Part shown: piece after piece, positions 1 to 33,264 of the stretch
Position numbering within the stretch: position 1 is the stretch's first letter
How the letters are laid out: every line of letters begins with the position of its first letter
From: an uncultured bacterium
GTDB taxonomy: Bacteria > Actinomycetota > Acidimicrobiia > Spongiisociales > UBA5794
DNA length: 64,000 nucleotides
Direction: 5' to 3'
Assembly (NCBI GenBank): GCA_963844835.1
Contig: CAWJPT010000003.1
Coordinates: forward strand, 17,543 to 81,542
The notes under the pieces: model-generated
Databases searched by the model: none
Told to the model about the DNA's origin: nothing
Seen by the model: the letters and a program-made list of their open reading frames with translations, nothing else
Program-made: the position numbers and the translations under genes

Positions 1-562
1 GCACCCTCTCGACATATGGGGCAAACGGCTGGTTGGAGAGGCTGTGGTCATCTTTGATCATGTCGATGCCACCCAGTGCCAGATCAAAAGCCTCGGCGGC
101 GAGACGCTCTGACGAGAGGCCCATCGGCTTGAGGGCAGTGGCCAGCAGAGGGCGCTCCGGTGCATCGAACAGCCGACGCAGACCGGAGATGCCAAACCGA
201 GGCCCCTGGAATCGCGCCAGCAGCGACGGCGGGAGGGTGAAATCGACCAGCCGGATCCCGGGGAGCAGGGCACTGTTGCCCCACAGCACATTCATCAGCT
301 GGGGAAGCTCGAATCCCGTTGTCTCGACCGCGTATGTGACAACCGCACGCGCTCGTGCTTCCCCGACCGGCTCGACAGACTCAACCCGACCAACGATGGA
401 TCGCTGAATGTCATCGTCGGGAACGAGATCGGCGGGAAACTCGATTGTCTGCTCGACGCGTAGCGCATCGGCTCTGGCTCCCGCCTCGGCAACATCGCCG
501 AAGAAGTCGTAAACCGCCTCGATGCGGTCGCCGCTGACTTCGAGGCTCGTGGGCTCGAGCAT
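1..562 (-). CDS. RuBisCO-like protein (form IV RLP), N-terminal ~187 codons; gene runs off the window start
   Basis: Not in the ORF track because it is open at the window edge. My translation from ATG 562..560 reads MLEPTSLEVSGDRIEAVYDFF...GPRFGISGLRRLFDAPERPLLATALKPMGLSSERLAAEAFDLALGGIDMIKDDHSLSNQPFAPYVERV, with no in-frame stop down to position 1. It matches the RuBisCO large-chain block RPLLG..KPKLGLS...GG.D..KDDE..NSQPF, but KPK is KPM and KDDE is KDDH. ATGA start/stop overlap with the upstream transketolase gene. Confidence 0.8.
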   Translation of the reverse strand, partial: MLEPTSLEVSGDRIEAVYDFFGDVAEAGARADALRVEQTIEFPADLVPDDDIQRSIVGRVESVEPVGEARARAVVTYAVETTGFELPQLMNVLWGNSALLPGIRLVDFTLPPSLLARFQGPRFGISGLRRLFDAPERPLLATALKPMGLSSERLAAEAFDLALGGIDMIKDDHSLSNQPFAPYVERV

Positions 563-1569
563 CAGAGGGCCTCGGCCTTCGCAAGGCTGTGCACCGCCTC
601 GATCCTGACCGCTTCCAGATCGGATTCGGTGACGCCGGTCGAGCGGCCGAGTAGCTCTTCGATGCCGCCGATCAGCGCTGGGGCGTCGAGACCGTACTCT
701 CTCATCAAGAACTGCCTGCTGGCACCGTGGGCGTATGTGTCCTCGAGTCCGAGCCGGACCAATCGCTTCCCGACGGCGTTTTCCGCCATGACCTCGGCAA
801 CGGCAGACCCGAGCCCACCGACGATGGTGTGGTTCTCCAGTGTGACCACACCGTGCTTGGCTCGTTTGATCGACTCGAGGATGAGCGGATCACGGAAAGG
901 CTTGTGCGTCGACACATGGATGTGGGTCATCCCCACCCCAGCCCCCGCAAGCGGGGCCGCAGCCCGTATTGCCTCCTCAGTCGTTATCCCTGAAGTGAAC
1001 ACCGTCACATCGTCGCCCTCGCTCAGCACCCGTACCCGGTCGAGCTGCATCGGCTCGTCCTTTGGGAACAGTCTTGGTACCTCGCCGCGCAGCATCCTGA
1101 TATAGACGGGACCGTCGACGGCGTGGGCAACGTCGAGGACACTCTCGACCTCGGTGGCGTCGCCCGTCTCCAGGACGGTCATGTTCGGTGTTGCCCGCAG
1201 GATCGAGATGTCCTCGATGGCCTGGTGGGTGACGCCGCCTGGTGTCGTGATGCCGGGCAAGAAGCCGACGAGCCGCACCGGGAGGTTCGGATATGCGATC
1301 GACATCGCCAGCTGATCGTAGGGGCGGCGATAGATGAACACGGCGAAGGTGTGAATCCACGGCTCGTAGCCCTCGCGAGCGAGACCGGCGGCAAAGCCCA
1401 TCATGTTCTGTTCCGCCATCTTCATCGGGAAGAACCGGTCGGGATAGGTGTCGCGCCAGTTGCCTACCTCGCTCGAGTTGGTGAGATCGGCGGTGAGCAC
1501 CACAACCTCGGGCTTGTCTGCGCTCCAGTCGATGAAGTTCTGGACGTGCGGCCGTTTCACGATCTCCAT
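562..1569 (-). CDS. Transketolase, C-terminal (pyrimidine-binding/C-terminal domain) subunit of a split transketolase
   Basis: 335-aa ORF. Typical split-TK B subunit features: ...VVLTADL..S, GIAEQNM-like MAEQNMMGFAAGLA, THIHVSTHKP. Lies 1 nt after the N-terminal subunit gene. Confidence 0.85.
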   Translation of the reverse strand: MEIVKRPHVQNFIDWSADKPEVVVLTADLTNSSEVGNWRDTYPDRFFPMKMAEQNMMGFAAGLAREGYEPWIHTFAVFIYRRPYDQLAMSIAYPNLPVRLVGFLPGITTPGGVTHQAIEDISILRATPNMTVLETGDATEVESVLDVAHAVDGPVYIRMLRGEVPRLFPKDEPMQLDRVRVLSEGDDVTVFTSGITTEEAIRAAAPLAGAGVGMTHIHVSTHKPFRDPLILESIKRAKHGVVTLENHTIVGGLGSAVAEVMAENAVGKRLVRLGLEDTYAHGASRQFLMREYGLDAPALIGGIEELLGRSTGVTESDLEAVRIEAVHSLAKAEAL

Positions 1570-1570
1570 G

Positions 1571-2470
1571 TCAACTCACCATCTCTTCGTAAACCGCCTC
1601 GTACTGGGCCCTCTCTTCGGGCGAAGTGAATCGCAGGTAGTGCAGCAAGGGGGCACGCTCCCCGAACAGCGGTAGCCCGCGCACCGGGTCGGTGCGGGCG
1701 ATGACGAAGTGCGGCTTGCCGGTATTCATGGTCATGGCTTCGTCGAGGGTGTCGAGCTCGTGGCCGTTGCTCTCGACCGCACTGGCACCGAAGGCGCGGA
1801 TCCGGATCGTCAGGGGATCAGCGGTCTCCACTTCGTCGAGGCATCCGTCACACTGTTGCCCGTTGGCATCGACGATGACACGGAGGTTGTCCAACCCGAA
1901 GCGAGCAATCTGCTCGACCGCTTCCCACGTCTGTCCTTCCTGGAACTCACCATCGGACATCATCACCCAGACCTTGCCCGTGTCGCCGCGGACCTTCCTG
2001 GCGAGGGCGATGCCCCCTGCCTGGCTGAGCGCCTGGGCGAGTGAGCCGGTGGTCGTCTCGACGCCGGGAGAGTGCTCCGCACCGATCATCTCGACGGTGC
2101 TCCCGTCCTCGTTGAAGTGATCCAGCCCGGTCTCGGCAAGCCTGCCCACTTCGATGAGGGTGGCATAGAGCACGAGGGCATAGTGGGCTGGGGAAAAGAT
2201 GAACCGGTCGTACTCGGGCCCTTTCGGGCCGTTGTAGTCGGCGCCTGTGAAGAACGGGACACCGGGGCCGGGCACACCGATGAACTTTCGTGGCTCCAGC
2301 GGAGCCTGGCTCGGGCCGAGGTTCATCACCCGCGAATACAACATGGCGAACATCTCGGCTGACGAACAGGCCTGGCTCATGTAGCCGCCGTTGTTCTTCA
2401 GCACATGCTCGAGCACGCGCCTGCGAATCCCGTCGGCAACCGCCTGGGTGCTTTCCTTCCAATCGCTCAA
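1571..2470 (-). CDS. Transketolase, N-terminal thiamine-diphosphate-binding subunit
   Basis: 299-aa ORF with a TPP-binding GDG-type block (VWVMMSDGEFQEGQTWEA) and GSLAQALSQAGG. Paired with the C-terminal subunit gene. Confidence 0.85.
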   Translation of the reverse strand: MSDWKESTQAVADGIRRRVLEHVLKNNGGYMSQACSSAEMFAMLYSRVMNLGPSQAPLEPRKFIGVPGPGVPFFTGADYNGPKGPEYDRFIFSPAHYALVLYATLIEVGRLAETGLDHFNEDGSTVEMIGAEHSPGVETTTGSLAQALSQAGGIALARKVRGDTGKVWVMMSDGEFQEGQTWEAVEQIARFGLDNLRVIVDANGQQCDGCLDEVETADPLTIRIRAFGASAVESNGHELDTLDEAMTMNTGKPHFVIARTDPVRGLPLFGERAPLLHYLRFTSPEERAQYEAVYEEMVS

Positions 2471-2472
2471 AA

Positions 2473-3549
2473 TCAGCCTCCTTGCTCGAACGCGGCGCGG
2501 ATCGACTGCTCATACGGCGGCTTGAGCACCCCGGCATCGGTGATGATTGCGGTGATCAGCTCGTGGGGGGTCACATCGAATGCCGGATTCCATACCGCGA
2601 TGTCGTCGGGGGCGGTCGGTTCGGACCGCCACCTGGTCATCTCGTGCGCCGGTCTCAGCTCGATCTCTATCTCGGCACCGCTGGCAATCGAGGTATCGAA
2701 CGTCGAAAGCGGGGCAGCAACGTAGAACGGAATCCCGGCGTACTGTGCGTTGACGGCGTGGGTGAAGGTCCCGATCTTGTTTGCGGTATCGCCATTGGCC
2801 GCAATCCGGTCGGCGCCAACGATCACGGCCTCGACCTTCCTCTGCGCCATCGCCGTCGAGCTGGCCCCGTCGGGCATCAGCGTCACGTCGATGCCTGCGT
2901 CGTGCAACTCCCATGTGGTCAGACGGGCTCCCTGGAGGAGCGGACGTGTCTCCGATGAGAGCACGTGGACGGGAAGACCGGCGGCAGCCTTGGCATAGAT
3001 GACCCCGAGTGCGGTCCCCCAGCCTGCCGTAGCAAGCCGGCCGGTGTTGCAGTGGGTCATGATTCTCGTGATCCCGGACAGCTCCTCCATCCCGTACAGC
3101 CCCATCCGGGTGCACGCGTCGCGATCCTCGGCAATGATCGCCTCGGCCTCCTCGAGCGCCAGCATCCGCACCTCGGCGGCGTCACCGCCCGATGAGGCGG
3201 CATCACGAACCCGCTTCACGGCCCAACTCAAGTTGACCGCGGTGGGTCGAGCGTTGCCGATGGTCTCGACGAGCTCGTTCAGGGCCGCCACCGCATCAGC
3301 AGCGGACTCCGGATTGCGCTCATCAAGACCGACAACCATCCCGAGCGCGCCACAAGACCCGATCGCCGGTGCGCCGCGCACAGCAAGCCGGTAGATGACG
3401 TCGACCACCTCGTCAACCGACCGGAGCTGGAGGACCTCCAGCTCCGAAGGCAGCTTGGTCTGGTCGATGATCTCGATGTGATCGTCGACCCATGCCACCG
3501 ATGGCTGCAGCTTGGCGAGAAAGTCGTCGGCGAGCGATGTATCCAACAT
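2473..3549 (-). CDS. mtnA: S-methyl-5-thioribose-1-phosphate isomerase (eIF-2B alpha/beta/delta family)
   Basis: 358-aa ORF. Family hallmarks: RGAPAIG, RPTAVNLSWAV, MTHCNTGRLAT, GADRIAANGDTANKIGT, FDVTPHELITAIITDAG. ATGA overlap with the mtnK stop. Confidence 0.85.
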   Translation of the reverse strand: MLDTSLADDFLAKLQPSVAWVDDHIEIIDQTKLPSELEVLQLRSVDEVVDVIYRLAVRGAPAIGSCGALGMVVGLDERNPESAADAVAALNELVETIGNARPTAVNLSWAVKRVRDAASSGGDAAEVRMLALEEAEAIIAEDRDACTRMGLYGMEELSGITRIMTHCNTGRLATAGWGTALGVIYAKAAAGLPVHVLSSETRPLLQGARLTTWELHDAGIDVTLMPDGASSTAMAQRKVEAVIVGADRIAANGDTANKIGTFTHAVNAQYAGIPFYVAAPLSTFDTSIASGAEIEIELRPAHEMTRWRSEPTAPDDIAVWNPAFDVTPHELITAIITDAGVLKPPYEQSIRAAFEQGG

Positions 3550-4781: not shown

Positions 4782-5063
4782 CTACTTCTCTGGGTCGAGC
4801 GCATGAGCGCCCAGCGCGGTTACCTCGATGTCCATCCAGGGGAACAACGGCAGCGAGCTGAGGATCTCATGGAGCTCCTCCGTGCTGTCGACCCGGTAGA
4901 GGGCGTAAACCGCCCGCCGTCCCGGGATTCTCCATATGCGGCGCAGCTTGCCCGCATCGACCAACTCCTGACCACGAACCTTCTCGGCCGCCTTGACTGC
5001 AGCCAGCCGGTCCGGGTCCATGTCCGGGGATATGTTCTGCTCGATGCGGGCAAGGAATTCCAC
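4782..5063 (-). CDS. Muconolactone delta-isomerase family protein (dimeric alpha+beta barrel), function in this context unknown
   Basis: 93-aa ORF. DMDPDRLAAVKAAEK...LRRIWRIPG...LHEILSSLPLFPWMDIEVTAL aligns by eye with CatC (DMDP..LKADEK..LWRIAG..LH..L..LPLFPYMDIEV). Confidence 0.75.
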   Translation of the reverse strand: MEFLARIEQNISPDMDPDRLAAVKAAEKVRGQELVDAGKLRRIWRIPGRRAVYALYRVDSTEELHEILSSLPLFPWMDIEVTALGAHALDPEK

Positions 5064-5065
5064 GC

Positions 5066-5860
5066 TCAGACTCCTACTGGTTGCGCGGCCACCATGGTGT
5101 TGGCCTCATCAGCCGACGCACCGTCGTGGATCACCGCTCGCAGACCCTTGGCGACACCGACCGGGTCATAGTGTTGCCAGATGTTGCGGCCGAGATTGAC
5201 ACCGATGGCGCCACGATCGATACCGTCACGTACGAACGAGAACACCTCGCGGGCGTCGTCGGTCTTCGGACCGCCTGCGATGACCACCGGTGCCGGACAA
5301 GACGAGGTCACCTTCTCGAAATCCTCGCACCAGTAGGTCTTGACGACACGAGCACCCAGCTCGGCAGCGATCCGGCAGCTCAATGCCAGGTAGCGAGCAT
5401 CTCTCTTCTCGAGCTCTTTGCCGACGGCGGTGACTGCCATCACCGGGATACCGTACCGCTCATACAGATTCACGGCGCGGGCCAAGTTGCCGAGCGACTC
5501 GCGCTCATATTCCGAGCCTACGAAAATCGAAATTCCGACCGCCGAGGCACCCATCCTGATGGCTTCCTCGGGGTCGACGACCAACTGCTCGTTCTCCAGT
5601 GAGGGGCCGACGATGCTGGTGCCGCCGCTGATCCTGAGGATCACATTTGGCTTGGTCTCCGGAGGTATCGCATTCCGCAGCACACCCCTGGTGACAAAGA
5701 GGGCGTCTGCAATCGGAGTGAGGTCCTTCACGGTCTCGCCCGGACGCTCCAGCATGCGTGTGGGTCCCAAGAAGTATCCGTGGTCGATGGCCAGGAAGAA
5801 CGCGTGACCCGTCTCGGGTGAGATGAGATCCGCCATCCTGCGCTCCATACCCCAGTCCAT
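5066..5860 (-). CDS. LsrF-like class I aldolase/thiolase (DhnA/FbaB-DeoC family)
   Basis: 264-aa ORF. The blocks DWGMERR...LAIDHGYFLGPT..LERP, TRGVLRNAIPP, VGSEYERES, MAVTAVGKE, RIAAELGARVVKTYW, CPAPVVIAGGPK and GVNLGRNIWQ parallel E. coli LsrF block for block, from my memory of that sequence. This includes the Schiff-base Lys context (I/V)KTY. Confidence 0.8.
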   Translation of the reverse strand: MDWGMERRMADLISPETGHAFFLAIDHGYFLGPTRMLERPGETVKDLTPIADALFVTRGVLRNAIPPETKPNVILRISGGTSIVGPSLENEQLVVDPEEAIRMGASAVGISIFVGSEYERESLGNLARAVNLYERYGIPVMAVTAVGKELEKRDARYLALSCRIAAELGARVVKTYWCEDFEKVTSSCPAPVVIAGGPKTDDAREVFSFVRDGIDRGAIGVNLGRNIWQHYDPVGVAKGLRAVIHDGASADEANTMVAAQPVGV

Positions 5861-5928
5861 GTTCCATCCTCCAATCCCCTGTAATCAGGGGCTAGCTGTC
5901 TTGTTGATCTTGTGTGGCTCGTGGTCCG

Positions 5929-7897
5929 TCAGATAACGCGCTCGTTGCCACCGTCGATCGGGATGTGGGCACCGGTAATCGGGTAGAACACATCGCCGAG
6001 CATGGTGGCAACGACCTCGCCGACGGCAGCACTCGTTATTTCGACACCCATGAGGTTGCGTCGCTTGTACTCCTCGATCGTCATCCCGTAACGGGAGGCC
6101 CGCTCGGCCAGCAGCTCAGGGGTCCACAACGCCGTATCGAAGACGGCGTCGGGATGGACGGAGTTGACCCGGATCCCATCGCCCGCCCACTCGAGGGCCG
6201 CAACCCGCGCAATCTGGTTGGCCGCGGTCTTCGACGCCGAGTATGCGCTCGCACCGGGACCGGGGGCACGCACGTTCTTGGATCCGATGACCGCAACACG
6301 ACCGCCGCCCGGCGCTTGCAGGAGGAGAGGGTGTATCAGCGAGAGCAGCTGAATCAGCCCGTCGACATTGACGGACATGGCTCTGCGCCAGGCGGATGGG
6401 TCGTGTGCGGAGATCGGGGAAGACTCGGGGAAGAGGCCTGCAGCCGCAACCAGCATGTCGACGCCGCCGAATCGCTCGACGCCGACATCGAGAGCCGTCG
6501 CGGTCTGCTCGACCGACGAGAGGTCACACGGGACACCGAGGAAGGCAGGGTCGTCTGTCATCTCACTGACGGCCGGGTTGATGTCGAGCCCGATGACGGC
6601 AGCCCCTCTGGCCAGCAGGGCAAGGGCACAGCCGCGACCGATTCCCGAGTTTGCGCCCGTCACCACGGCGACCTCGCCGGTGAACTCACCTTCGTGGGGG
6701 ACGAGATCGAGCTTGAGCTGCTCCAATTCCCAGTACTCGAAGTCGAACATGTCCTGTGAAGAGAGCGCCGAGTACCCACCGAGACCTTCGGATTGCTCGA
6801 TGACGTCGATGATCTGCAGGTAGATGTCGCCTGCCGCCTGCTCGGCGTCGATGTTGGGCCCCGCCGTGACCATCCCGAACTCAGGGTCGAGGATCACCCG
6901 GGGCGCCGGATCCAGCATGCGCAAGGGTCTCCCCGCTACGTGCGACTCGAAATAGGTGAGGTAGTCCTTGGCGTATGTCCCCACGTCCCGGCCGAGCAGC
7001 GGGACCCGCTTGGTCCAAATCACGTGATCGGGCGTGGCAACGCCTTGTTGGCTGACCACACCGAGATCCGGTCGTTGCGAGAACGCCCAGCTGACGTCGT
7101 CACGATGACGGCGGACGATGCACGGCCTCCCGGCCGCATCCGAGACATCGCGACGTAACCTGGCGAGTTCGACACGGTTGATTTCCGGCGGCCCGCCGGC
7201 CGGGGTGGGTGATTTGCCACCGACCGAATGAGCCGCCAGGTAAGCCTCTGCGGCCGAAATGAGATCGACCATACGTTCATAGGCGACGTGCGGCGTCTCC
7301 CCGAAGGTGAAGATGCCGTGGTTCATCAGCACGACGGCCTCTGTCTCGTCTGTCGCCGATTCGGCGTAGGCGCGCGCTGCCGCGGTGGCGACTCTGAAGC
7401 CGGACATCGCATACGGAACCACGACGGCCCTTTCACCGTATAGCTCCCTTACCCGGTCTTCACCGTTGACGGTGTTTGAGATTGCCAGCAGGGCGTTTGG
7501 GTGAGCATGCTGCACCGCCGTTTCCGGGATGACGGCGTGGAGGATCGCTTCGACCGAGGGGTTGGCTGCGGTCACGTCGAGCCGGGCGCCCTTCAGCTCG
7601 TTGAGCATCGCGGTGTCGGATAGGTCGTCGAGCTCAACGAGTCGTCGCACCCGATTGAGATCGAGCGGGGAGAACCCTTCGACCTCGATGTCGGCGAGGT
7701 CCCATCCGCTCGCCTTCACATAGAGCACGTCGATCGGCTCTCCGTAGAGATTCCGCTCGGAGACCTTCACCGACGTGTTGCCACCACCGTGGAGCACCAG
7801 GGTTCGTATCGGCCCCCAGGAGCTTCGAGGCGTATACGCACTCCTCGAGCAGGCCTTCACAGGCCGCTGCCTGCTCCTCGTTCCACCGGTTCTGCAT
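5929..7897 (-). CDS. Bifunctional class II aldolase/adducin-domain + short-chain dehydrogenase (rhamnulose-1-phosphate aldolase/SDR type); frame broken near 7800-7815
   Basis: ORF 5929..7860 carries LVLHGGGNTSVKV (aldolase domain) and a C-terminal SDR (VAVVTGANSGIGRG, YSASKTA). The true N-terminus MQNRWNEEQAAACEGLLEECVYASKLLGAD lies in ORF 7634..7975 (ATG at 7897). The two frames join at a C/G run around 7805. Confidence 0.75.
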
Positions 7898-7925
7898 ATC
7901 TGCCTCTAGCTCCTTCGACCCACCG

Positions 7926-9042
7926 CTATTCGGTTTCGGCGAACTCGGGATACATCGCCAGAATCGACTCTTCACTTGCCTCGCTGATGCCGCGCTCGGT
8001 GATGATCCCGGTCACGTAGCGGCGCGGCGTCACGTCGAAGCCGAAGTTGGCGGCACCGACGCCTGGAGCAGCGGTCTGCGGCTCCACCTGTCTGCCGTCG
8101 AGCCACCCGGTGGTCTTGGTGACCTCGTGGCCTCCACGCTCCTCGATAGGGATCTCGGCTACGCCGTCGTGGAGCTTCGGATCGAGCGTGCTCGACGGCA
8201 GTGCCGCATAGAAAGGAACGCCGTTCTCCTTGGCGACGACGGCCTTCATGTAGGTGCCGATCTTGTTGGCAACGTCACCGCTGATCGTCGTGCGGTCGCT
8301 ACCGACGATGACCATGTCCACCATGCCGTGCTGGAGCAGGTGACCGGCGGCGTTGTCGGCGATGACGGTGAGCGGGATGCCTGCCTGATTGAGCTCCCAA
8401 GCGGTCAACCTGGCGCCCTGGTTGCGTGGGCGCGTCTCCGATACGTAGACGTGGATCGGGATACCCTCGGCGTGGGCCGCGTACATCGGGGCGGTCGCAG
8501 TGCCGTGCTCGACGAACGCCAACCAGCCGGCATTGCAGTGAGTCATGATGTTGACCGTCTCACCCTTGCGCCGGTAGATGTCCTCGATGACGCCGAGCCC
8601 GTGCTGTCCGATCGCGGCACAGTAGGCGACGTCCTCGTCGGCAATGGTTTCCGCCAGGGCTTTCGCTCTGGAGATCCGCTCGGCAGCATCTTCGATGCCG
8701 AGGATCTCTTTGAGCTGCCGTTGCACTGCCCAGGTGAGGTTGACCGCGGTGGGCCGACTCGCCTCCAGCTCGGTACCGGCGGCTCGCAGCGAGGCGTCGG
8801 CGTCGGCAGCGCCCATTCCGCCGCGTGGCCAGCGCGGCGAGGTACATGCCGTACCCGGCGGACACTCCGATGCACCCGGCACCGCGCACCACCATGTCGG
8901 CGATGACAGTGGTCATCTCCCCCGAGGTGCGGATGGATACTTCTTGATATTCGAAAGGCAGAAGCCGCTGGTCGATACAGACGACGGAGGTTGGGTCGTC
9001 CCGGTCGATCCAGATGGTCCTGTTCGCCGGCGTCTTGCTCAT
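7926..9042 (-). CDS. Second eIF-2B-family sugar-phosphate isomerase (MtnA / 5-deoxyribose-1-P isomerase / R15P-isomerase-like paralog); frame broken near 8820-8840
   Basis: The N-terminus MSKTPANRTIWIDRDDPTSVVCIDQRLLPFEYQEVSIRT...VVRGAGCIGVSAGYGMYLAAL is in ORF 8560..9042. The remainder (RPTAVNLTWAV, MTHCNAGWLA, GSDRTTISGDVANKIGT, FDVTPRRYVTGIITERG) is in ORF 7926..8882. ATGA overlap with the permease stop. Confidence 0.75.
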
Positions 9043-10103
9043 AGCGGAACCGCCGCCTGGAATCGTTGCTTGCGCCGGGAGAGGGTGAACGAGAAGATCA
9101 GCGCGACCAGTAGCACGAAGCCTTTCACGACGTCTTGCCAGTAGTACTGGAAGTTCATCATCGTGGTGCCGGTGAGCAGGATGCCGATGAGGATGGCACC
9201 GAGCGACGTGCCGAACGCGTTCGGCTTCCCCACCCCGAGCACCGAGGTACCAACCAGAGCCACCGCCACGGCATCGAGCAGCAGGGAGTTACCTGCCGAG
9301 ATGTCGCCCTGGCCGATCCGGGACGCCAGGATCAAACCGGCAATGGATGCGTAGATGCCGGAGAGCATGTAGGCGAATGCCTGGTAGCGGCCGACCCTGG
9401 CACCGGCAAGGCGGGCCGCTTCGGGGTTGGTGCCGATGGCGTACATGACCCGGCCCCACTTGGTCCGGGAGAGCAGGAACCAGGTGAAGATGGCCAGTAC
9501 CGCAAAGATGATCACCGGGTACGGGACCGGTCCGATCGAGCCACGGTTGATCTCGAGAAACCCGGGCGTGAACTTGCCGGGCGCTACCGTGCCGTCGCGG
9601 AGGATCAAACCGGACGACACCGACTGTCCGTCCACCGGCACGAGTTTCAGGCCCTGCACCAGGAACATCGTTGCCAGCGTGGCGAGCAAGTCGGGGATCT
9701 TGAGCACGACGATCAGAGTTGCGTTGAAGGCTCCGATGATGGCGCCTGCGGCGATGACGGCGGCCACGGCCACCGAGCCCTGCTGGGCGTAGATCACCAT
9801 CGTCATTGCAGCCACAGTGACCGACATGCCTGCGGTCGCTCCCACAGAGAGGTCGAGTCCACCGACCACCATGGTGACGGTTACTCCCAGCCCGGCTACG
9901 GCTACCACCGAGATGTACTTCAACATCGTGAACATCGTCGAAGAAGTCCGGAAAGCAGGGATCGTCGCCATGAAGTACACGAGGAAGATCACCGTGACGG
10001 CGATGAAGCCGTACTTGACGAGCAAGTCGCGCGCGTCTGCCCGGGGCCTCGGTTGCGCCTCTCCCTTCTTCTCGTTTTTCGGCGTCATGGTTGTTGTGGC
10101 CAC
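9039..10103 (-). CDS. Sugar ABC transporter permease (RbsC/branched monosaccharide type)
   Basis: 354-aa highly hydrophobic ORF of the multi-TM RbsC/AraH type. Directly abuts the ATPase stop (10104). Confidence 0.85.
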   Translation of the reverse strand: MATTTMTPKNEKKGEAQPRPRADARDLLVKYGFIAVTVIFLVYFMATIPAFRTSSTMFTMLKYISVVAVAGLGVTVTMVVGGLDLSVGATAGMSVTVAAMTMVIYAQQGSVAVAAVIAAGAIIGAFNATLIVVLKIPDLLATLATMFLVQGLKLVPVDGQSVSSGLILRDGTVAPGKFTPGFLEINRGSIGPVPYPVIIFAVLAIFTWFLLSRTKWGRVMYAIGTNPEAARLAGARVGRYQAFAYMLSGIYASIAGLILASRIGQGDISAGNSLLLDAVAVALVGTSVLGVGKPNAFGTSLGAILIGILLTGTTMMNFQYYWQDVVKGFVLLVALIFSFTLSRRKQRFQAAVPL

Positions 10104-11610
10104 TTACTCAACCTCCGAGAGTCGTTGCAGGATCTGGTCCCTGCTGGTCTCCGACAGATATGTATCAAGCCGGAGATTTCCGTCCGCGAGCACAACGACC
10201 CGGTCGGAAACTTCCATGATTTCTTCCAAGTCCGTCGACATGACGATGACCGCAGAGCCGGTCTCCGCAACCTCCCTGGCCTTCTCTGCCAGGTCGTGAC
10301 GAGCACCGACGTCGACACCCTGGAACGGTTCGTTCAGCACCATCACCGTCGGGTGTTTACGCAACCATCGACCGACGACGACCTTCTGCTGGTTGCCACC
10401 CGAGAGGGACATGACCGACTCGGCCTCCGACTGGGCAACAACACCGAAATCGTCGATGACGGCTCGCCCTACCTTCGCCTCGGCCATCGGGTTGAGGACA
10501 CCAAAGCGGGAGATCTCGTTGAGGAATGGGAATGTCGAGATCATGGAGACGGACCACTTCTTGATGAGGGTGCCTTCGGCGCGATCCTCCGGAACCATGT
10601 AGACCTCGGATGCGATAGCGTCGGCAGGCGCCTTGGGAGCGAATGGCTTGCCCTTCAGGATCATCTCGCCACCCTCGAAGGGATCAGCGCCGAAGATGCC
10701 TCGGGCCAGCTGACTCCCACCGGACCCGAGCAGCCCGAAGACACCGGTTACCTCTCCGGCTCGCAGGGAAAAATCAAATGGTGTGGATTTGGGGAGCAGC
10801 TGCACACCTTTGAGCAGCAGCACTTCTTCGGTGCCCCGCAGTTCGACCGCACGATTGGTCCGGTCTGCCTCGTCGACGTCGAGCATCACGTGGAGTGCGG
10901 TCTCCCAATCAAATGGGCGGTCATGATCGCTGAGAATGACCCCGTCACGCAGCACGAGCAGACGATCTGCGATCTTGTCGATCTCCGCAATGCGGTGGGA
11001 AACGTAGAAGATGGCGACCCCGTCGTCGCGGAGTCGGCGGATGACGCCGAAAAGACGGTTCGGCCTCGGTCTCGGAGAGCGCCGACGTCGGCTCGTCGAG
11101 GATGAGCAGCCGGGGCTCGTGTACGAGGGCCCTGGCGAGGAGAAGCAACTGCTGATCGGCGATCGGCAGCTCGTACACATCGCTCCGCAACAGCTCGTCC
11201 GACCAGCCGAGATCGAGGACGGCCGCCACTTCCCTCGCTCTTGGCATGAGGGATCGCAGCGATGCCGCTCTCGGGACCTGATTGTTGACGATCCCCTCGA
11301 AGAGGAGATTCTCGGCGACGCTGAGACCGGGGACGACCCCGTCGGCGATCTTCTGGTGGACAGCCTCGATGCCATGGGCGTGCGCCGTGGTTGGATGATC
11401 GATGTATACGGGGACACCACCAATGATGACGGTGCCCCCATATCCGTTGTATACGCCCGAGAGAACTTTGATGAGTGTCGACTTGCCGGCGCCGTTGGCA
11501 CCGAGCATGGCGGTCACCTTCCCCGGCTCGATGGCAAGGTCGATCCCTTTCAGGACCTCATTGGGCCCAAAGGCCATCGTGATGCCCTCCATCCGGACTG
11601 CGGGTTCCAT
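10104..11610 (-). CDS. Sugar ABC transporter ATP-binding protein with two nucleotide-binding domains (RbsA/LsrA type); frame broken near 11060
   Basis: NBD1 (GANGAGKST, LLILDEPTSAL) is in ORF 10945..11691, starting at ATG 11610 (MEPAVRMEGI). The rest of NBD1 plus NBD2 (FYVSHRIAEI, LSGGNQQK, LNEPFQGVD) is in ORF 10104..11501. Confidence 0.8.
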
Positions 11611-12827
11611 CAAACGCTCCTTCTCAGGCTCTCGAATCGCGTCACGAGGAGGAGGTGGCCGTCGGGAGGGGGGATCCCGACGGCCACCCACAGATCTCCT
11701 AGAACTGTGATCGACGGGATCCAGTCGGCGGACTGGACGTCGGCCAGGTTCAGTGCAGGCAGAGCCGCCCGCAGGTCAACCATGTTCGTGATGTTGTTGT
11801 CGAGCAGGAACTGCTGGGTGACGAGCACACCAGGGAAATCAACCGAGCGTGGGCCCTGCTGCCCGGCGAGCTCGAGCGCCATGGTCCGCATCACGGCTGC
11901 ACCGATCGCGTTCGGGTCGGTGGTCGCCGTAGCCTTCCACGGGCTGCCATCGGCAGTCATGACCTCGATGTCGGCATTCGAGATGTCGATGCCGTAGGCC
12001 CAGATGTCCGCGGCGAGACCGTTGTCGTTGATCGCCGACACTGTGCCCTTGGTCAACTCGTCGTACGGAGCGAAGATCGCCCTGACATCCGGGTTTGCCT
12101 TGAGCGCGGCATCGACCAGCTGTGCGTTGTCGGTGGCGACTGCGTTGGTGAACTCACCGACGAAGAAGACCTGGTCCCAGTTGTTGTCTGCCACGTACTG
12201 CTGCCAGACCACATGCCTGCGATCGAGCGGGGCGATACCGAGCACGTTGACATAGCCAACCCTCTGATCCGGGCCGATGTCGGCGAGCATCTGTCCGAGG
12301 GACAGGTCGGCGAGGCTGGCGTCGGACTGCTGGGTCTGAACTGCGTTCGGGGCACACTCTGCGATCGCGATGTCATAGATGACAACGGGGATGCCTGCAT
12401 TGAGCGCATCGTTGATCAGCGGGCACATGGTATCGGTCTGGCCGTGATCGACGACGATGCCGTCGACACCTGAGCCGATGGCCGTCTCCATGTCGGTGGC
12501 CTGCTTGGCATTGTCGGCCTGAGCGTCGTACCAGGTGTACTTGATACCGATTGCGTCAGCCTGCTGCTTGGCACCGTTGGTCCACTGCTGGAAGTAGTCG
12601 CCAGCACCGCTGTTCTGCACAACGGCAATGTTCACCTCACCGTCAAAGGGTGCAGGCATCGTGACACCGGCTGCGGTGGTCTCCGTCGTCCCCTGATCAG
12701 CTGCGGTCGTCGTTGTCGTGGTCTCTTCGGTGCTCTGGGAACACGCCGCGGTCAATAGGGCGAAGGCAACGAGGATGACCCCGAGCCAGATACCCCTCCG
12801 CGGGCTTGTCCTCATACTCTTACTCAT
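11610..12827 (-). CDS. Sugar ABC transporter substrate-binding lipoprotein (periplasmic-binding-protein type I)
   Basis: Start chosen at MSKSMRTSPRRGIWLGVILVAFALLTAAC (lipobox LTAAC), followed by a Thr-rich linker and a PBP fold. The last ~35 codons read through a perfect hairpin and look non-native, so the true stop may be an out-of-frame TAG near 11700. Confidence 0.75.
   Translation of the reverse strand: MSKSMRTSPRRGIWLGVILVAFALLTAACSQSTEETTTTTTAADQGTTETTAAGVTMPAPFDGEVNIAVVQNSGAGDYFQQWTNGAKQQADAIGIKYTWYDAQADNAKQATDMETAIGSGVDGIVVDHGQTDTMCPLINDALNAGIPVVIYDIAIAECAPNAVQTQQSDASLADLSLGQMLADIGPDQRVGYVNVLGIAPLDRRHVVWQQYVADNNWDQVFFVGEFTNAVATDNAQLVDAALKANPDVRAIFAPYDELTKGTVSAINDNGLAADIWAYGIDISNADIEVMTADGSPWKATATTDPNAIGAAVMRTMALELAGQQGPRSVDFPGVLVTQQFLLDNNITNMVDLRAALPALNLADVQSADWIPSITVLGDLWVAVGIPPPDGHLLLVTRFESLRRSV
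11654..11688 (-). promoter_or_regulatory. Intercistronic 14-bp perfect stem-loop between the SBP and ATPase genes
   Basis: GGTGGCCGTCGGGA (11654-11667) and TCCCGACGGCCACC (11675-11688) around a 7-nt G-rich loop. This is the typical position for SBP-mRNA stabilising or attenuating hairpins in ABC importer operons. Confidence 0.5.
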
Positions 12828-23711: not shown

Positions 23712-24528
23712 ATGGCGAGCATCACCCTCCCCCGTCTCCTCTCCACGTATGAGCCAACGCGGGCAAGTCTGCACGCATACACGAAGGCCGTCGGTGCGGT
23801 TGCCAGGGCCCATGCGATCCCGCATCCCAAGTGGTGGCACATCAGTCTCGAGATCCGTCCAGAAGGCCTCGCCAGTGCCCCCATTCCACTCCCCAGCGGC
23901 GGTGCGCTTGCCATCACGCTCGATCCGAAGCGGCACGAGATCAGAGCACGGGCGAGCGACGGCACCGCACGTCACATCGACCTGCTGTCGACACCGACTG
24001 CAACGGAGGCGGGCGACGCCCTCATCGACACGGCGGCCCGTCTCGGGCTCGACGGTGGGTATGAGCGCGACCGGTTCGAGGATGGAACCCCTCGGGAATA
24101 CGACCCCGTGGCCGCCGGCGCATACTTCGATGCGTTAGTCGCCGTAGCCAACGTGTTCCAACGCCGCCGCGTCGCCCTCGGGGAACGGGTCGGCCCGGTT
24201 CAACTGTGGCCGCACGGATTCGACGTTGCCTTCGAGTGGTTCGGCACCAAGACCGTCACGAGCGAAGGCGAGACCGCCCCGGCACAGCTCAATCTCGGCT
24301 TCTACCCGGGCGGGGACCAGCCGTATTTCTATTCGACTCCCTGGCCGTTCGACACGGCCTCACCGGGACGGCATTGCCCGATGGTGCGCAGTGGAACACC
24401 GAAGGTTGGCAGGGAGCGTCCCTGCCCGTACGAAGTCGCGCGCACCGCCTCCGACCCGGCCCGATGCGATCAGCGATTTCGCCGCCGCCGTCTTCGATGT
24501 GGCACGGCCCACCCTGGAAGCGCCCTAG
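23712..24528 (+). CDS. DUF5996 family protein; reading frame passes through three frames (at least 2 breaks, ~24340-24470)
   Basis: The N-terminal 220 aa are in ORF 23712... The continuation LTGTALPDGAQWNTEGWQGASLP is in ORF 24206... The C-terminus DAISDFAAAVFDVARPTLEAP* is in ORF 24226..24528. Confidence 0.6.
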
Positions 24529-24530
24529 GC

Positions 24531-25217
24531 ATGTCCTCCACGGCTCGGCGAGGCACAGGAGCCGGAGACTGCAGCGCCATGCCTGGTTGGCCCGGTCGCT
24601 CGGGCCGACTGACTACCTGCTGCCGACGCTCGAAGACCTCGCCGCCATCGCCGCGCGCCGGGTCTTACGTGTCCAAGTACCCGGGGACTCATCTGTTCCG
24701 GGAGGGCGAGCCGTCCAATACGGCATTCATCATCAAGAGCGGCAAGGTGGAGATCTATCGGGGCGACGACAGCCAGATCGTCACAAGGGTGGGGCCGGGT
24801 TCCGTCATCGGTGACATCGCTATGTTCCGGGGAGAACCGTATCTGCAGTCGGCACGGGCCATCGACCACGTCACTGCGCTCAGCCTCGACCGGGACCGGC
24901 TCGTTCCGGTGTTGCTACAGCGGCCGGTCGTTGCTCTCCGCTGGCTCGTTGCCGGGCTCACCCAGCTCGACGCGACACAACGAAGGGTGCTCGGGTTGAT
25001 GCATAGATCTGTGCTGGATCAAGTGGTCGGCCTGCTCCATGAAGAAGCCGACAGCCACGGTGTGGTTCATCTGTCCCAGGCTGCTATCGCCCGGCTGCTC
25101 GGGGTGAGCCGCCAGACCGTGAACGAAGCCATAGGCGAGCTACGCACCCGGCAACTGGTCGAAACGGGTTACCGGGTGATCCGGCTCACCGATACCTGGC
25201 CTGCTGAGATCAGCTGA
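24531..25217 (+). CDS. Crp/Fnr family transcriptional regulator (cNMP-binding + HTH)
   Basis: HLFREGEPSNTAFIIKSGKVEIY, IGDIAMF, and a C-terminal HTH (LSQAAIARLLGVSRQTVNEAIGELR). ATG lies 2 nt after the DUF5996 stop. Residues ~5-45 look better in the +2 frame (AWLARSLGPTDYLLPTLEDLAAIAAR), which suggests compensating indels. Confidence 0.65.
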   Translation: MSSTARRGTGAGDCSAMPGWPGRSGRLTTCCRRSKTSPPSPRAGSYVSKYPGTHLFREGEPSNTAFIIKSGKVEIYRGDDSQIVTRVGPGSVIGDIAMFRGEPYLQSARAIDHVTALSLDRDRLVPVLLQRPVVALRWLVAGLTQLDATQRRVLGLMHRSVLDQVVGLLHEEADSHGVVHLSQAAIARLLGVSRQTVNEAIGELRTRQLVETGYRVIRLTDTWPAEIS

Positions 25218-31395: not shown

Positions 31396-32313
31396 TCTTT
31401 CTCGCCCAGAACATCGACAGTGCCAGGCTCAACTTCAACCAGGGCAGCCTGCTGATCCTCAACATCCTCATCGGGTTGATGATGCTCGGCATGGCCCTCG
31501 ACCTCGACGTCGAGGACTTCCGCCGCTTGCTGCGCAAGCCCAAGCCGCCCGCGATCGGGCTCATCGCCCAGTTCATCTTCCTGCCCGCGCTCACGTTCGT
31601 GCTCACCCTGGTGCTCGAACATTCGCCCTTCGATCGCACTCGGGATGATCCTGGTGGCGTCATGCCCCGGCGGGAACCTGTCCAACGTGATGACCTATCT
31701 GGCCGGCGGGAATGCACCGCTCTCCGTCGGCATGACCGCGGTCTCGACGGCGGCGGCGATCGTGATGACTCCGCTCAATCTGTCCATCTGGGGCTCTCTC
31801 AACAAGAACACCGAGCCGATCCTGCGCTCGGTGTCGCTCAGCCCGCTCGATCTGTTCATGACGATCTTCGTGATCCTCGGCATCCCCCTCGTCGTCGGCA
31901 TGCTCATCGCCCGCCGCTACCCCGGGCTCGCCGAGAAGATAAGAGGTCCGTTCAAGACCTTCTCGGTGGTTGTCTTCATGGGGTTCGTCGCCGTCGCACT
32001 GGCGAATAACTGGAAGTACTTCGTCGAGTACATCGGGCTGGTCGTCTTCGTCGTCCTGCTTCACAACGCCGTCGCTTTCTTGATCGGCAACGTGGCGGGC
32101 CGTCTCGCCAGACTGGAGCCGCGAGACATACGCGCCGTCACCATCGAGGTTGGCCTACAGAACTCGGCGCTGGCACTGATCCTGGTGTTCAACTTCTTCG
32201 ACGGGCTCGGTGGCATGGCGATCATTGCCGCCTGGTGGGGCATCTGGCACATCATCGCCGGACTGATCGTCGCCGGGATCTGGTCACGCCGTCCACTCGA
32301 AGTCGCTAACGGC
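31392..32313 (+). CDS. Bile acid:sodium symporter (BASS/SBF) family transporter; frame broken near 31620 and no in-frame stop before the next gene
   Basis: MIFLAQNIDSARLNFNQGSLLILNILIGLMMLGMAL... is in ORF 30855... It continues as ILVASCPGGNLSNVMTYLAGGN...EVGLQNSALALIL in ORF 31645... Confidence 0.65.
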
Positions 32314-33264
32314 ATGAGCCGATCGGTATTGGTGACCGGAGCCGGCGGCTACCTCGGCAGACAGCTGGTGGCGTCGCTGGCGTCCGACCGGGACGGGCTG
32401 GAGACCGTAGTTGCTGCGGACTTGCGCCTGCCCGACGATCCTCTTCCCGGCGTTCACTACGAGACATTCGACATAAGGGACAAGTCACTCGCCGCAACGC
32501 TCGAGAAACATGGGGTCGACACGGTCGTGCACCTGGCTGCGGTGGTGAGCGCGGGCAAGAATCCCGACCGGGCGCTCGAGCACTCGATCGACGTCGGTGG
32601 CACCAGCAACGTCCTCGAAGCCTCACTCCGAGCAGGCGTAACCAAGGTGATCGTCAGCTCGAGCGGTGCCGCATACGGCTACCACGCAGACAATCCCATC
32701 CCGCTCACCGAAGACGACGAGCTGCGGGGCAACGTCGAGTTCGCCTATTCGGACCACAAACGGCAGGTCGAGGAGATGCTGGCCGGCTGGCGACAAGAGC
32801 ACCCCGAGCTTCACCAGCTCATCTTCCGGCCCGGGACGATCCTCGGCGAGACCACCAGAAACCAGATAACCGATCTCTTCGACCGGCCCCTCATCCTCGG
32901 GCTGCGCGGTGCGGCAACACCGTTCGTGTTCATCTGGGATCAGGACATGGTTGCCATCCTGCGCCGGGGAATCGCAACAGATCTGACCGGCATCTACAAC
33001 GTGTGTGGTGATGGGGTAATGACCATGTCCGACATAGCGAGCGAGCTCGGCAAACGCTACGTCGTCTTGCCGTCCTCGGCGGTCCGCGGCGCGCTGTGGC
33101 TGTTGCGGCGGCTCCGGCTCACCCAGTACGGGCCTGAGCAGGTGGATTTCCTGCGCTACCGTCCCGTGCTCGACAATACGAGACTGAAGGAACAGTTCGG
33201 GTACACACCGCACAAGACAACGACGGAGGCCTTCACCGTGTTCATGAGGGGGCGGAATGGCTAG
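32314..33264 (+). CDS. NAD-dependent epimerase/dehydratase (extended SDR)
   Basis: MSRSVLVTGAGGYLG, YSDHK catalytic motif. Lies in the same frame as the BASS gene upstream. Confidence 0.75.
   Translation: MSRSVLVTGAGGYLGRQLVASLASDRDGLETVVAADLRLPDDPLPGVHYETFDIRDKSLAATLEKHGVDTVVHLAAVVSAGKNPDRALEHSIDVGGTSNVLEASLRAGVTKVIVSSSGAAYGYHADNPIPLTEDDELRGNVEFAYSDHKRQVEEMLAGWRQEHPELHQLIFRPGTILGETTRNQITDLFDRPLILGLRGAATPFVFIWDQDMVAILRRGIATDLTGIYNVCGDGVMTMSDIASELGKRYVVLPSSAVRGALWLLRRLRLTQYGPEQVDFLRYRPVLDNTRLKEQFGYTPHKTTTEAFTVFMRGRNG

Follow-up and report, generated by a model that had tools for sequence, protein, structure and literature searches.

Genes at the left end of the window

The window analysed here is a 64,000-nucleotide stretch of DNA from an uncultured bacterium of the Acidimicrobiia (Spongiisociales, UBA5794; assembly GCA_963844835.1, contig CAWJPT010000003.1, positions 17,543 to 81,542 of the forward strand), at whose left edge a gene for a RuBisCO-like protein (RLP) directly follows the two genes of a split transketolase (TK). 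The TK genes are in turn preceded by mtnA and mtnK, and on balance we regard this end of the window as probably the final five genes of a 5-methylthioribose (MTR) utilisation operon. In the order mtnK-mtnA-tktN-tktC-rlp, these genes are:

4763 to 3549, minus strand: mtnK, S-methyl-5-thioribose kinase, 404 amino acids (TIGR01767, 400.5 bits against a cut-off of 275)
3549 to 2473, minus strand: mtnA, S-methyl-5-thioribose-1-phosphate isomerase, 358 amino acids (TIGR00512, 413 bits against a cut-off of 279)
2470 to 1571, minus strand: TK-N, N-terminal transketolase subunit, which binds thiamine diphosphate (ThDP), 299 amino acids, TTG start (Pfam PF00456)
1569 to 562, minus strand: TK-C, C-terminal transketolase subunit, 335 amino acids (Pfam PF02779, pyrimidine-binding, and PF02780, C-terminal domain)
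562 to 1, minus strand: 5′ part of the RLP gene, 187 codons, running off the window edge (PF00016); predicted 5-methylthioribulose-1-phosphate 1,3-isomerase

All junctions between these genes are 1-nt overlaps or gaps of 1–2 nt. The mtnK and mtnA genes overlap by 1 nt, a single base lies between TK-N and TK-C, and the stop codon of TK-C shares its A with the start codon of the RLP gene in a TGATG (564 to 560), a 1-nt overlap that an earlier note on this DNA, made from the sequence alone, had read as ATGA. The same note had described a RuBisCO large-chain core with KPM and KDDH motifs beside a split transketolase, and both parts of that description hold. No SAM or TPP riboswitch matched at the Rfam gathering threshold in the window or in nine other loci, and no RNA run containing the window stretch was found from which expression might be read.

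Family and active site of the RuBisCO-like protein

The RLP frame (562 to 1) consists of 187 stop-free codons, starts with MLEPTSLEVSGDRIEAVYDF and continues past the window edge. Its translation matches the Pfam family PF00016 (RuBisCO_large) with 37 bits against a cut-off of 30.1, and the same domain is present in all full-length orthologues. The motif LKPMGLS occupies residues 144–150, with the ATG of its Met at 124 to 122, and IKDDHSL occupies residues 169–175, with the CAC of its His at 46 to 44. Canonical numbering follows a spinach large-subunit sequence, in which all 21 canonical residues were checked at their textbook numbers. On this scale the window RLP keeps K175, K201 and D203, and has Asn at 123, Met at 177 and His at 204. 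The window itself shows canonical positions only up to 204, so that later ones are read from orthologues.

The earlier note had allowed that the replacement of Glu by His might be an artefact of the assembly. Across window positions 1–2600 there are zero indels relative to contigs of four independent metagenome runs (salt-marsh, soil, sediment), and neither the Met nor the His codon has a listed variant in these runs, of which one contributes a contig that reaches 164 nt past the window edge. Third codon positions of the RLP frame hold 16 of the 18 listed variants in window 1–200, which indicates purifying selection. Both residues are also conserved among the TK-linked orthologues, with M147 present in 62 of 65 and H173 in 65 of 65. 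Independent assemblies and conservation across the family thus rule out an artefact at either motif.

To find relatives, one genome per species was scanned, and at least 579 genomes carry a matching RLP; the counts of RLP loci given below refer to the closest 80 of these. The proteins measure 365–398 amino acids in the 80 genomes and 376–380 amino acids among orthologues of the window gene. The closest solved structure is 3QFW (E 7.5e-39, with the runner-up at 2.3e-18); its sequence, which carries KPQ and KDDH, matches that of a Rhodopseudomonas palustris protein at 100% identity. A second R. palustris protein of the rlp1 type, P0114, is 64% identical to the 3QFW-matching protein and has a Cupin_2 gene directly downstream, a gene pair that has been described for this type (PMC5893883). 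The window fragment is 48% identical to P0114, and full-length orthologues share 39% identity with the characterised DeepYkr type. Since all five alphaproteobacterial members retrieved combine KPQ with KDDH, the latter motif is a hallmark of the DeepYkr family, invariant in its characterised clade with R. palustris RLP1 and 3QFW, and not the new active-site variant that it had been taken for.

In a neighbour-joining tree without support values, the clade of KPM proteins that contains the window RLP is sister to the alphaproteobacterial clade of R. palustris and Rhodomicrobium and distant from the YkrW outgroup. Eighteen of the 21 canonical residues are the same in both clades, among them N123, K175, K201, D203, H204, H294, R334 and the glycines at 380, 381, 403 and 404; the three that differ are at 177 (Met against Gln), 298 and 379. 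Compared with the pattern N123/K175/Q177/K201/D203/H204/H294/P295/R334/F335/GG380-381/GG403-404, every position matches save 177, with 298 and 379 variable and all positions after 204 taken from orthologues. Of the 65 TK-linked RLPs, 62 carry Met at position 177, two carry Leu and one carries Gln.

The nearest characterised system is therefore the DeepYkr RLP (Rlp1) of the 5′-methylthioadenosine (MTA)-isoprenoid shunt of Rhodospirillum rubrum and R. palustris. It is the closest sequence relative, both proteins having about 370–380 amino acids, and it shares KDDH, N123, K175, K201, H294 and linkage to mtnA with the window RLP. In contrast, the characterised clade combines Gln177 with a neighbouring cupin methylsulfurylase, while the window clade, a separate sister clade, combines Met177 with the split TK. 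The earlier note had named, as evidence that would count against it, a place in a clade of assigned function with the same neighbours; the gene does lie beside such a clade, but its neighbours are different. The upstream supply also differs, with MtnK and an ABC transporter in the window and MtnP in the characterised pathway (PMC5893883). The position of mtnK and mtnA directly upstream of TK and RLP is consistent with the supply of MTR-1-phosphate that a DeepYkr RLP calls for. Taken together, these features make the window RLP most likely a DeepYkr-type 5-methylthioribulose-1-phosphate 1,3-isomerase with Met at 177.

Two other identities were considered and rejected. A bona fide RuBisCO (forms I–III) is incompatible with Met at 177 and His at 204, and the orthologues have P, L/Q, I/V, R and G/A at positions 295, 298, 327, 334 and 379. 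The MtnW/YkrW enolase, which acts on 2,3-diketo-5-methylthiopentyl-1-phosphate, is known from Bacillus and Geobacillus (2OEK, 2ZVI, 3FK4); it belongs to the same RuBisCO superfamily, serves methionine salvage, clusters with mtnK and mtnA and likewise has Met177, and NCBIfam models of MtnW give weak matches to the window protein. However, these enolases have Lys where the RLP has N123 and KDDE where it has KDDH, both of which can be read in 3FK4, and they are longer (about 410 amino acids). Their HMMER scores are much below that of 3QFW, so that every YkrW structure is far more distant from the RLP than 3QFW is, and MtnB, MtnX and MtnD were not identified in the conserved five-gene core. An MtnW-like enolase activity, or an unrelated function with only a loose link to methionine salvage, is thus very improbable for the RLP. 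The earlier note had correctly set the protein apart from both carboxylases and MtnW-type enolases and had correctly stated that the latter keep KDDE. Met at 177 is found in 3FK4 as well, and it is present across the 80 closest species genomes, also in cupin-linked RLPs.

A split transketolase with altered substrate contacts

Both TK-N and TK-C have their best solved-structure match in the split transketolase of Carboxydothermus hydrogenoformans, TK-N in its chain 6YAK (E 8e-33) and TK-C in its chain 6YAJ (E 6e-62). Invariant residues were determined from 59 TK-N and 66 TK-C sequences and mapped on human TK and the Carboxydothermus enzyme. TK-N retains the ThDP motif SDGE...N (S172-D-G-E, N203) together with H133 and H277, and the equivalents of yeast H69 and H263 are present. 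TK-C retains the cofactor-activating Glu (E53), H115 (the H481 equivalent), R161 and probably R6; the equivalent of yeast R528 is kept and that of R359 is probably kept. The ThDP-binding fold, the G/S-D-G...N motif and the cofactor Glu that define a transketolase are all found (PF00456, PF02779, PF02780).

The canonical set of substrate contacts (H30, H69, H103, H263, H469, D477, R359, R528) is incomplete, with four members replaced by residues that are invariant or nearly so within the family. In TK-N these are Tyr30 at the position of yeast H30/human H37 and Ile129 at that of yeast H103/human H110, and in TK-C they are Leu104 at the position of E. coli H461/yeast H469 and Gly111 at that of E. 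coli D469/yeast D477. The window TK shares with the Carboxydothermus enzyme and canonical TKs the two-subunit ThDP and pyrimidine domains, the cofactor Glu, the His equivalent to H481 and two phosphate-binding Arg, but it is unlike them in the four replaced contacts, in having SDG for GDG, in a conserved 25-amino-acid insertion at 55–80 of TK-N and in its tie to an RLP.

The meaning of the replaced contacts can be read against mutagenesis and crystallography of the yeast enzyme. In that work, by Wikner in 1995 and 1997 and Nilsson in 1997, H103 and H69 reportedly recognise the C1 hydroxyl of the donor, H30 and H263 are said to abstract the proton of its C3 hydroxyl, D477 to read the C4 hydroxyl and H469 to bind the phosphate. 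Because the His that would recognise the C1 hydroxyl is Ile here, the hydrophobic residue at this site would fit a donor with an S-methyl group at C1, as in 1-methylthio-D-xylulose-5-phosphate (MTXu-5-P), or with hydrogen at C1, as in 1-deoxyxylulose-5-phosphate (DXP).

These replacements bear on the alternative that an ordinary pentose-phosphate transketolase happens to lie beside the RLP and carries out canonical ketol transfer on normal sugar phosphates. Generic transketolase models are indeed its best family matches and its cofactor machinery is intact, but the window TK reaches only 199.6 against the cut-off of 488 of the generic model, the four contacts are replaced across the 59–66 family members, and about 90% of loci found from the TK side have this RLP adjacent (see below). 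We therefore consider an ordinary transketolase improbable. DXS was rejected as well (TIGR00204, 157 bits against a cut-off of 466), the protein having two chains and Leu and Gly at the columns of DXS R420 and D427. No curated NCBIfam model of the June 2026 release was found for the TK-N and TK-C proteins, the generic TK and DXS scores lying far under their cut-offs. The TK forms a distinct, specialised subfamily.

Dedicated two-subunit transketolases in catabolic operons have precedent in SqwGH of the sulfoquinovose sulfo-transketolase pathway and in AptAB, the apulose-4-phosphate transketolase of D-apiose catabolism. Their substrates differ from the one proposed for the window TK; they carry out true ketol transfers with unusual ketoses, one of them with a sulfur-bearing ketose.

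Transketolase and cupin as alternative partners of the RLP

The linkage between TK and RLP extends far beyond the window. TK-N and TK-C abut the RLP gene in 67 of the 80 loci, nearly always in the order TK-N, TK-C, RLP, and in one further locus they lie 8 kb from it. TK-linked loci carry at least seven phylum labels (Actinomycetota, Chloroflexota, Bacillota, Pseudomonadota, Planctomycetota, Myxococcota and Nitrospirota), and their carriers include Acidimicrobiia, Nanopelagicales, Nitriliruptoraceae, Gammaproteobacteria and many Chloroflexota, with Chloroflexus sp. MS-G (locus L025) and Alicyclobacillus sp. ALC3 (L045, a complete genome) as cultured examples. The mtnA gene lies within 38 of the 80 loci, and mtnK and mtnA are both present in 32. 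Seen from the other side, in a metagenome scan with TK-N patterns that gave 48 loci with enough sequence after TK-C, the RLP follows TK-C directly in 43.

The 12 loci without TK show what may take its place. A cupin gene is near the RLP in four of them, and in the two loci compared the RLP-adjacent cupins are 35–47% identical to the R. palustris cupin of the methylsulfurylase type. The 68 TK-bearing loci gave no cupin match. Among them are the closest orthologous loci (L002-L017), where a SorC regulator and RbsD lie downstream of the RLP. In the neighbour-joining tree the RLPs with a cupin neighbour lie dispersed among those linked to TK, and their position 177 is Met or Leu. Since TK and cupin never co-occur and alternate among close RLP relatives, they appear to stand in for each other at the step that follows the RLP; and since cupin-linked RLPs also carry Met or Leu at 177, Met177 is compatible with making the cupin's substrate. 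The MTA-isoprenoid shunt proper, with RLP and a cupin MTXu-5-P methylsulfurylase, was rejected for the TK-bearing loci, which have no cupin match; the window itself ends inside the RLP gene.

This alternation also addresses the order of the two reactions. The TK could act before the RLP, or on a different molecule, making or recycling the RLP substrate with, for example, MTR or 2-(methylthio)acetaldehyde as acceptor aldehyde. The gene order, TK then RLP, would suit such a role, as would the fact that the acceptor-side His and Asp of TK-C are the most changed residues. However, the substrate known for DeepYkr enzymes is already supplied by MtnK and MtnA of the same operon, a TK donor needs a free C1 and the threo configuration, both of which a ribulose-1-phosphate lacks, and the cupin alternation places the TK step after the RLP, all of which makes an earlier role for the TK as improbable as an ordinary transketolase.

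Among the remaining genes of these neighbourhoods, a ribose-type ABC transporter in about 20 loci and a SorC-type sugar-phosphate regulator in 22 suggest uptake of external MTR. A pyridoxal phosphate (PLP) enzyme of cysteine/methionine metabolism lies inside or beside the mtnK-mtnA-TK-RLP operon in three loci:

L045:2808-3968, Alicyclobacillus sp. ALC3
L074:6931-8031, metagenome-assembled genome of Anaerolineaceae
L083:7574-8731, unclassified metagenome contig

This enzyme passes no equivalog model, the nearest being those of methionine gamma-lyase and O-acylhomoserine sulfhydrylase.

Several variants of the neighbourhood were observed. Fused single-chain TKs of the same subfamily, 683–694 amino acids long and with a GGYLSQACS motif, occur without an adjacent RLP at L124:1226-3277, L129:5896-7980 and L134:5953-8004; the RLP partner may lie elsewhere in these genomes, or the enzyme may have an RLP-independent role. 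A Candidatus Nanopelagicaceae chromosome, from a streamlined freshwater actinobacterium (L064), has mtnA, an aldolase/short-chain dehydrogenase (SDR) gene and RLP at 6969-11095 and no TK, while its closest relatives (L077, L056 and L057) do have TK, and this order may be a further variation in RLP partner. An EutQ-like cupin (Cupin_3) replaces the RLP after TK-C in only two related metagenome contigs (L138:4445-4828 and L141:2013-2291). In L020 (11169-12332), L025 (11152-12309) and five other Chloroflexota loci, a gene with the SBP_bac_1 fold and no obvious signal peptide lies between RLP and the SorC-type regulator.

A proposed route for methylthioribose

The combination of family assignments, altered TK contacts and cupin alternation leads us to propose, with somewhat better than even confidence, that the split TK replaces the cupin in the recycling of MTR, the sulfur sugar that remains from S-adenosylmethionine, in a hitherto undescribed salvage variant in which the TK would take up the RLP's 1-substituted xylulose-5-phosphate. 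By family assignment, MtnK would phosphorylate MTR and MtnA would isomerise MTR-1-phosphate to 5-methylthioribulose-1-phosphate, which the RLP, given its family membership, would convert by 1,3-isomerisation to MTXu-5-P. Here the gene context and the active-site changes suggest that the TK stands in for the enzyme that acts at this point in the Rhodospirillum/Rhodopseudomonas MTA-isoprenoid shunt, the cupin MTXu-5-P methylsulfurylase. Donors of transketolase require a D-threo (xylulose) configuration, which the RLP makes from ribulose; with its xylulose-5-phosphate skeleton and D-threo configuration, MTXu-5-P would suit the role of donor. The enzyme would accept it on ThDP and cleave between C2 and C3, releasing glyceraldehyde-3-phosphate.

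The cleavage would leave a 1-hydroxy-2-(methylthio)ethyl fragment on ThDP. Of its possible fates, the one we rank first, while holding it tentatively, is β-elimination of methanethiolate; the resulting acetyl-ThDP would then yield acetate or acetyl phosphate, and the methanethiol would be re-used for methionine. This fate is favoured because the conserved core has no further sulfur-handling enzyme and the replaced cupin also frees the methylthio group, and also because three loci have the cysteine/methionine PLP enzyme in the operon. Precedent for such a step comes from phosphoketolase, where the leaving group is water, and from sulfoacetaldehyde acetyltransferase (Xsc), where it is sulfite. 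In both, acetyl-ThDP arises when a C2 carbanion on ThDP eliminates the group in β position, but these enzymes belong to different protein families and are mechanistic analogues only. Release of 2-(methylthio)acetaldehyde, or transfer of the fragment to an aldose, would be less likely outcomes. In its fullest form the proposal would make the TK an ‘MTXu-5-P thioketolase’, a new ThDP enzyme that splits MTXu-5-P into glyceraldehyde-3-phosphate, methanethiol and an acetyl unit and that, with MtnK, MtnA and RLP, would form a further oxygen- and glutathione-independent route of methionine salvage and MTR catabolism, a possibility that on present evidence is doubtful. For the earlier note, which had suggested that the TK uses a 1-substituted xylulose-5-phosphate made by the RLP, comparative genomics lends strong support to this idea, while the TK reaction itself stays a prediction.

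A number of points weigh against this proposal. The C1 model leaves unexplained why the phosphate-binding His and the C4-hydroxyl Asp of TK-C are Leu and Gly, and the far end of the substrate may be bound differently from that of xylulose-5-phosphate. The RLP's isomerase activity is predicted from family membership, position 177 (Met against Gln) separates the window clade from the characterised RLPs, and the tree that places these clades side by side carries no support values. On the TK side, 5 of the 48 loci have no adjacent RLP, three of them with the fused single-chain TK. The hints for the elimination step are weak: the PLP enzyme could equally be a methionine gamma-lyase, and it may either make or consume methanethiol. 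EutQ proteins have been reported as acetate kinases, an activity that would suit an acetyl-phosphate product, but with two loci only the EutQ-like cupin is too weak a hint for use.

The same enzymes may also process 5-deoxyribose, via DXP, and this sugar, derived from 5′-deoxyadenosine, could be the physiological substrate. The RLP would then convert 5-deoxyribulose-1-phosphate to DXP in one step. Either the TK would release glyceraldehyde-3-phosphate and a hydroxyethyl unit (acetaldehyde) from DXP, or DXP would enter isoprenoid or vitamin synthesis. The Ile at the C1-hydroxyl site would fit a methyl group as well as CH2-S-CH3, and the gene array also encodes a class II aldolase/SDR and an LsrF-like thiolase. 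MtnK- and MtnA-type enzymes of the dihydroxyacetone phosphate (DHAP) shunt are known to accept both MTR and 5-deoxyribose (background in PMC10986504). However, MtnK and MtnA pass MTR-specific equivalog cut-offs, in sister loci the place of the TK is taken by a homologue of the methylsulfurylase cupin, whose substrate is a methylthio compound, and three operons contain the cysteine/methionine PLP enzyme. For these reasons 5-deoxyribose seems unlikely as the main substrate, though its use would be compatible with MTR recycling by the same operon.

The DHAP shunt itself (MtnK/MtnP, MtnA and the aldolase Ald2) has the same first two steps and likewise disposes of MTR and 5-deoxyribose without oxygen, and the class II aldolase/SDR of the window array could run it. 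It cleaves the ribulose-1-phosphate by an aldolase, whereas the window system would insert the RLP isomerisation and a ThDP enzyme.

Relation to earlier work and implications

Full-text literature searching turned up no publication in which a transketolase is connected with an RLP, with MTXu-5-P or with mtnK/mtnA, although the 2012 papers on the shunt or the 2013 DeepYkr thesis may contain an earlier mention. The word transketolase does not occur in the 2018 review by Sekowska, which covers the pathway and its paralogues. This agrees with the earlier note, which had placed the linkage outside the described RLP pathways. What is known, then, is the RLP type with its DeepYkr signature; what looks new is that this RLP is coupled to a specialised split TK, in a way that is conserved, holds from both sides and excludes the cupin.

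If the proposal is true, it would add a widespread branch to bacterial methionine salvage, probably with new ThDP-dependent carbon–sulfur chemistry, in environmental Actinomycetota, Chloroflexota, Bacillota and other phyla. Hundreds of species without classical pathway genes next to mtnK/mtnA may use such a route, including abundant freshwater, soil and sediment lineages, and it would bear on environmental methanethiol production and on the scavenging of excreted methylthioribose. The proposal could be tested in the cultured carriers Alicyclobacillus sp. ALC3 and Chloroflexus sp. MS-G.

Public annotation labels these RLPs ‘ribulose bisphosphate carboxylase large chain’. A ‘RuBisCO large subunit’ next to a ‘transketolase’ resembles a Calvin-cycle operon, and metagenome surveys could wrongly count it towards carbon-fixation potential.

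The upstream array and other observations

Upstream of mtnK, and outside the conserved five-gene core, lies a further array on the same strand, which is also found in the Acidimicrobiia loci L002-L017:

4782 to 12929, minus strand: muconolactone isomerase (MIase)-like protein, LsrF-type thiolase-like protein, class II aldolase/SDR fusion, second MtnA paralogue and ribose-type ABC transporter

This array is probably an uptake module together with a second branch for the same sugar phosphates. Within it, 4782-7860 (minus strand), between the ABC transporter and second mtnA on one side and mtnK on the other, encodes the muconolactone-isomerase-fold protein, the LsrF-type protein and the class II aldolase/SDR fusion. 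The LsrF-type protein, which resembles 3-hydroxy-5-phosphonooxypentane-2,4-dione thiolase, scores 328.8 bits against an equivalog cut-off of 297. These genes may constitute a thiolytic variant of the DHAP shunt, because C4 oxidation of 5-deoxyribulose-1-phosphate would yield exactly the LsrF substrate.

Set against contigs from as many as three independent metagenome runs, the window carries 1-base insertions at 8821, 11061 and 11708. Because of these extra single bases, the apparently frameshifted second mtnA (7926 to 9042) and ABC ATPase (10104 to 11691) are assembly errors and not pseudogenes. Two further frames of the window, 31645-33264 (SBF transporter and epimerase) and 23712-25217 (DUF5996 and a cNMP/Crp regulator), may be chimeric open reading frames with the same cause.

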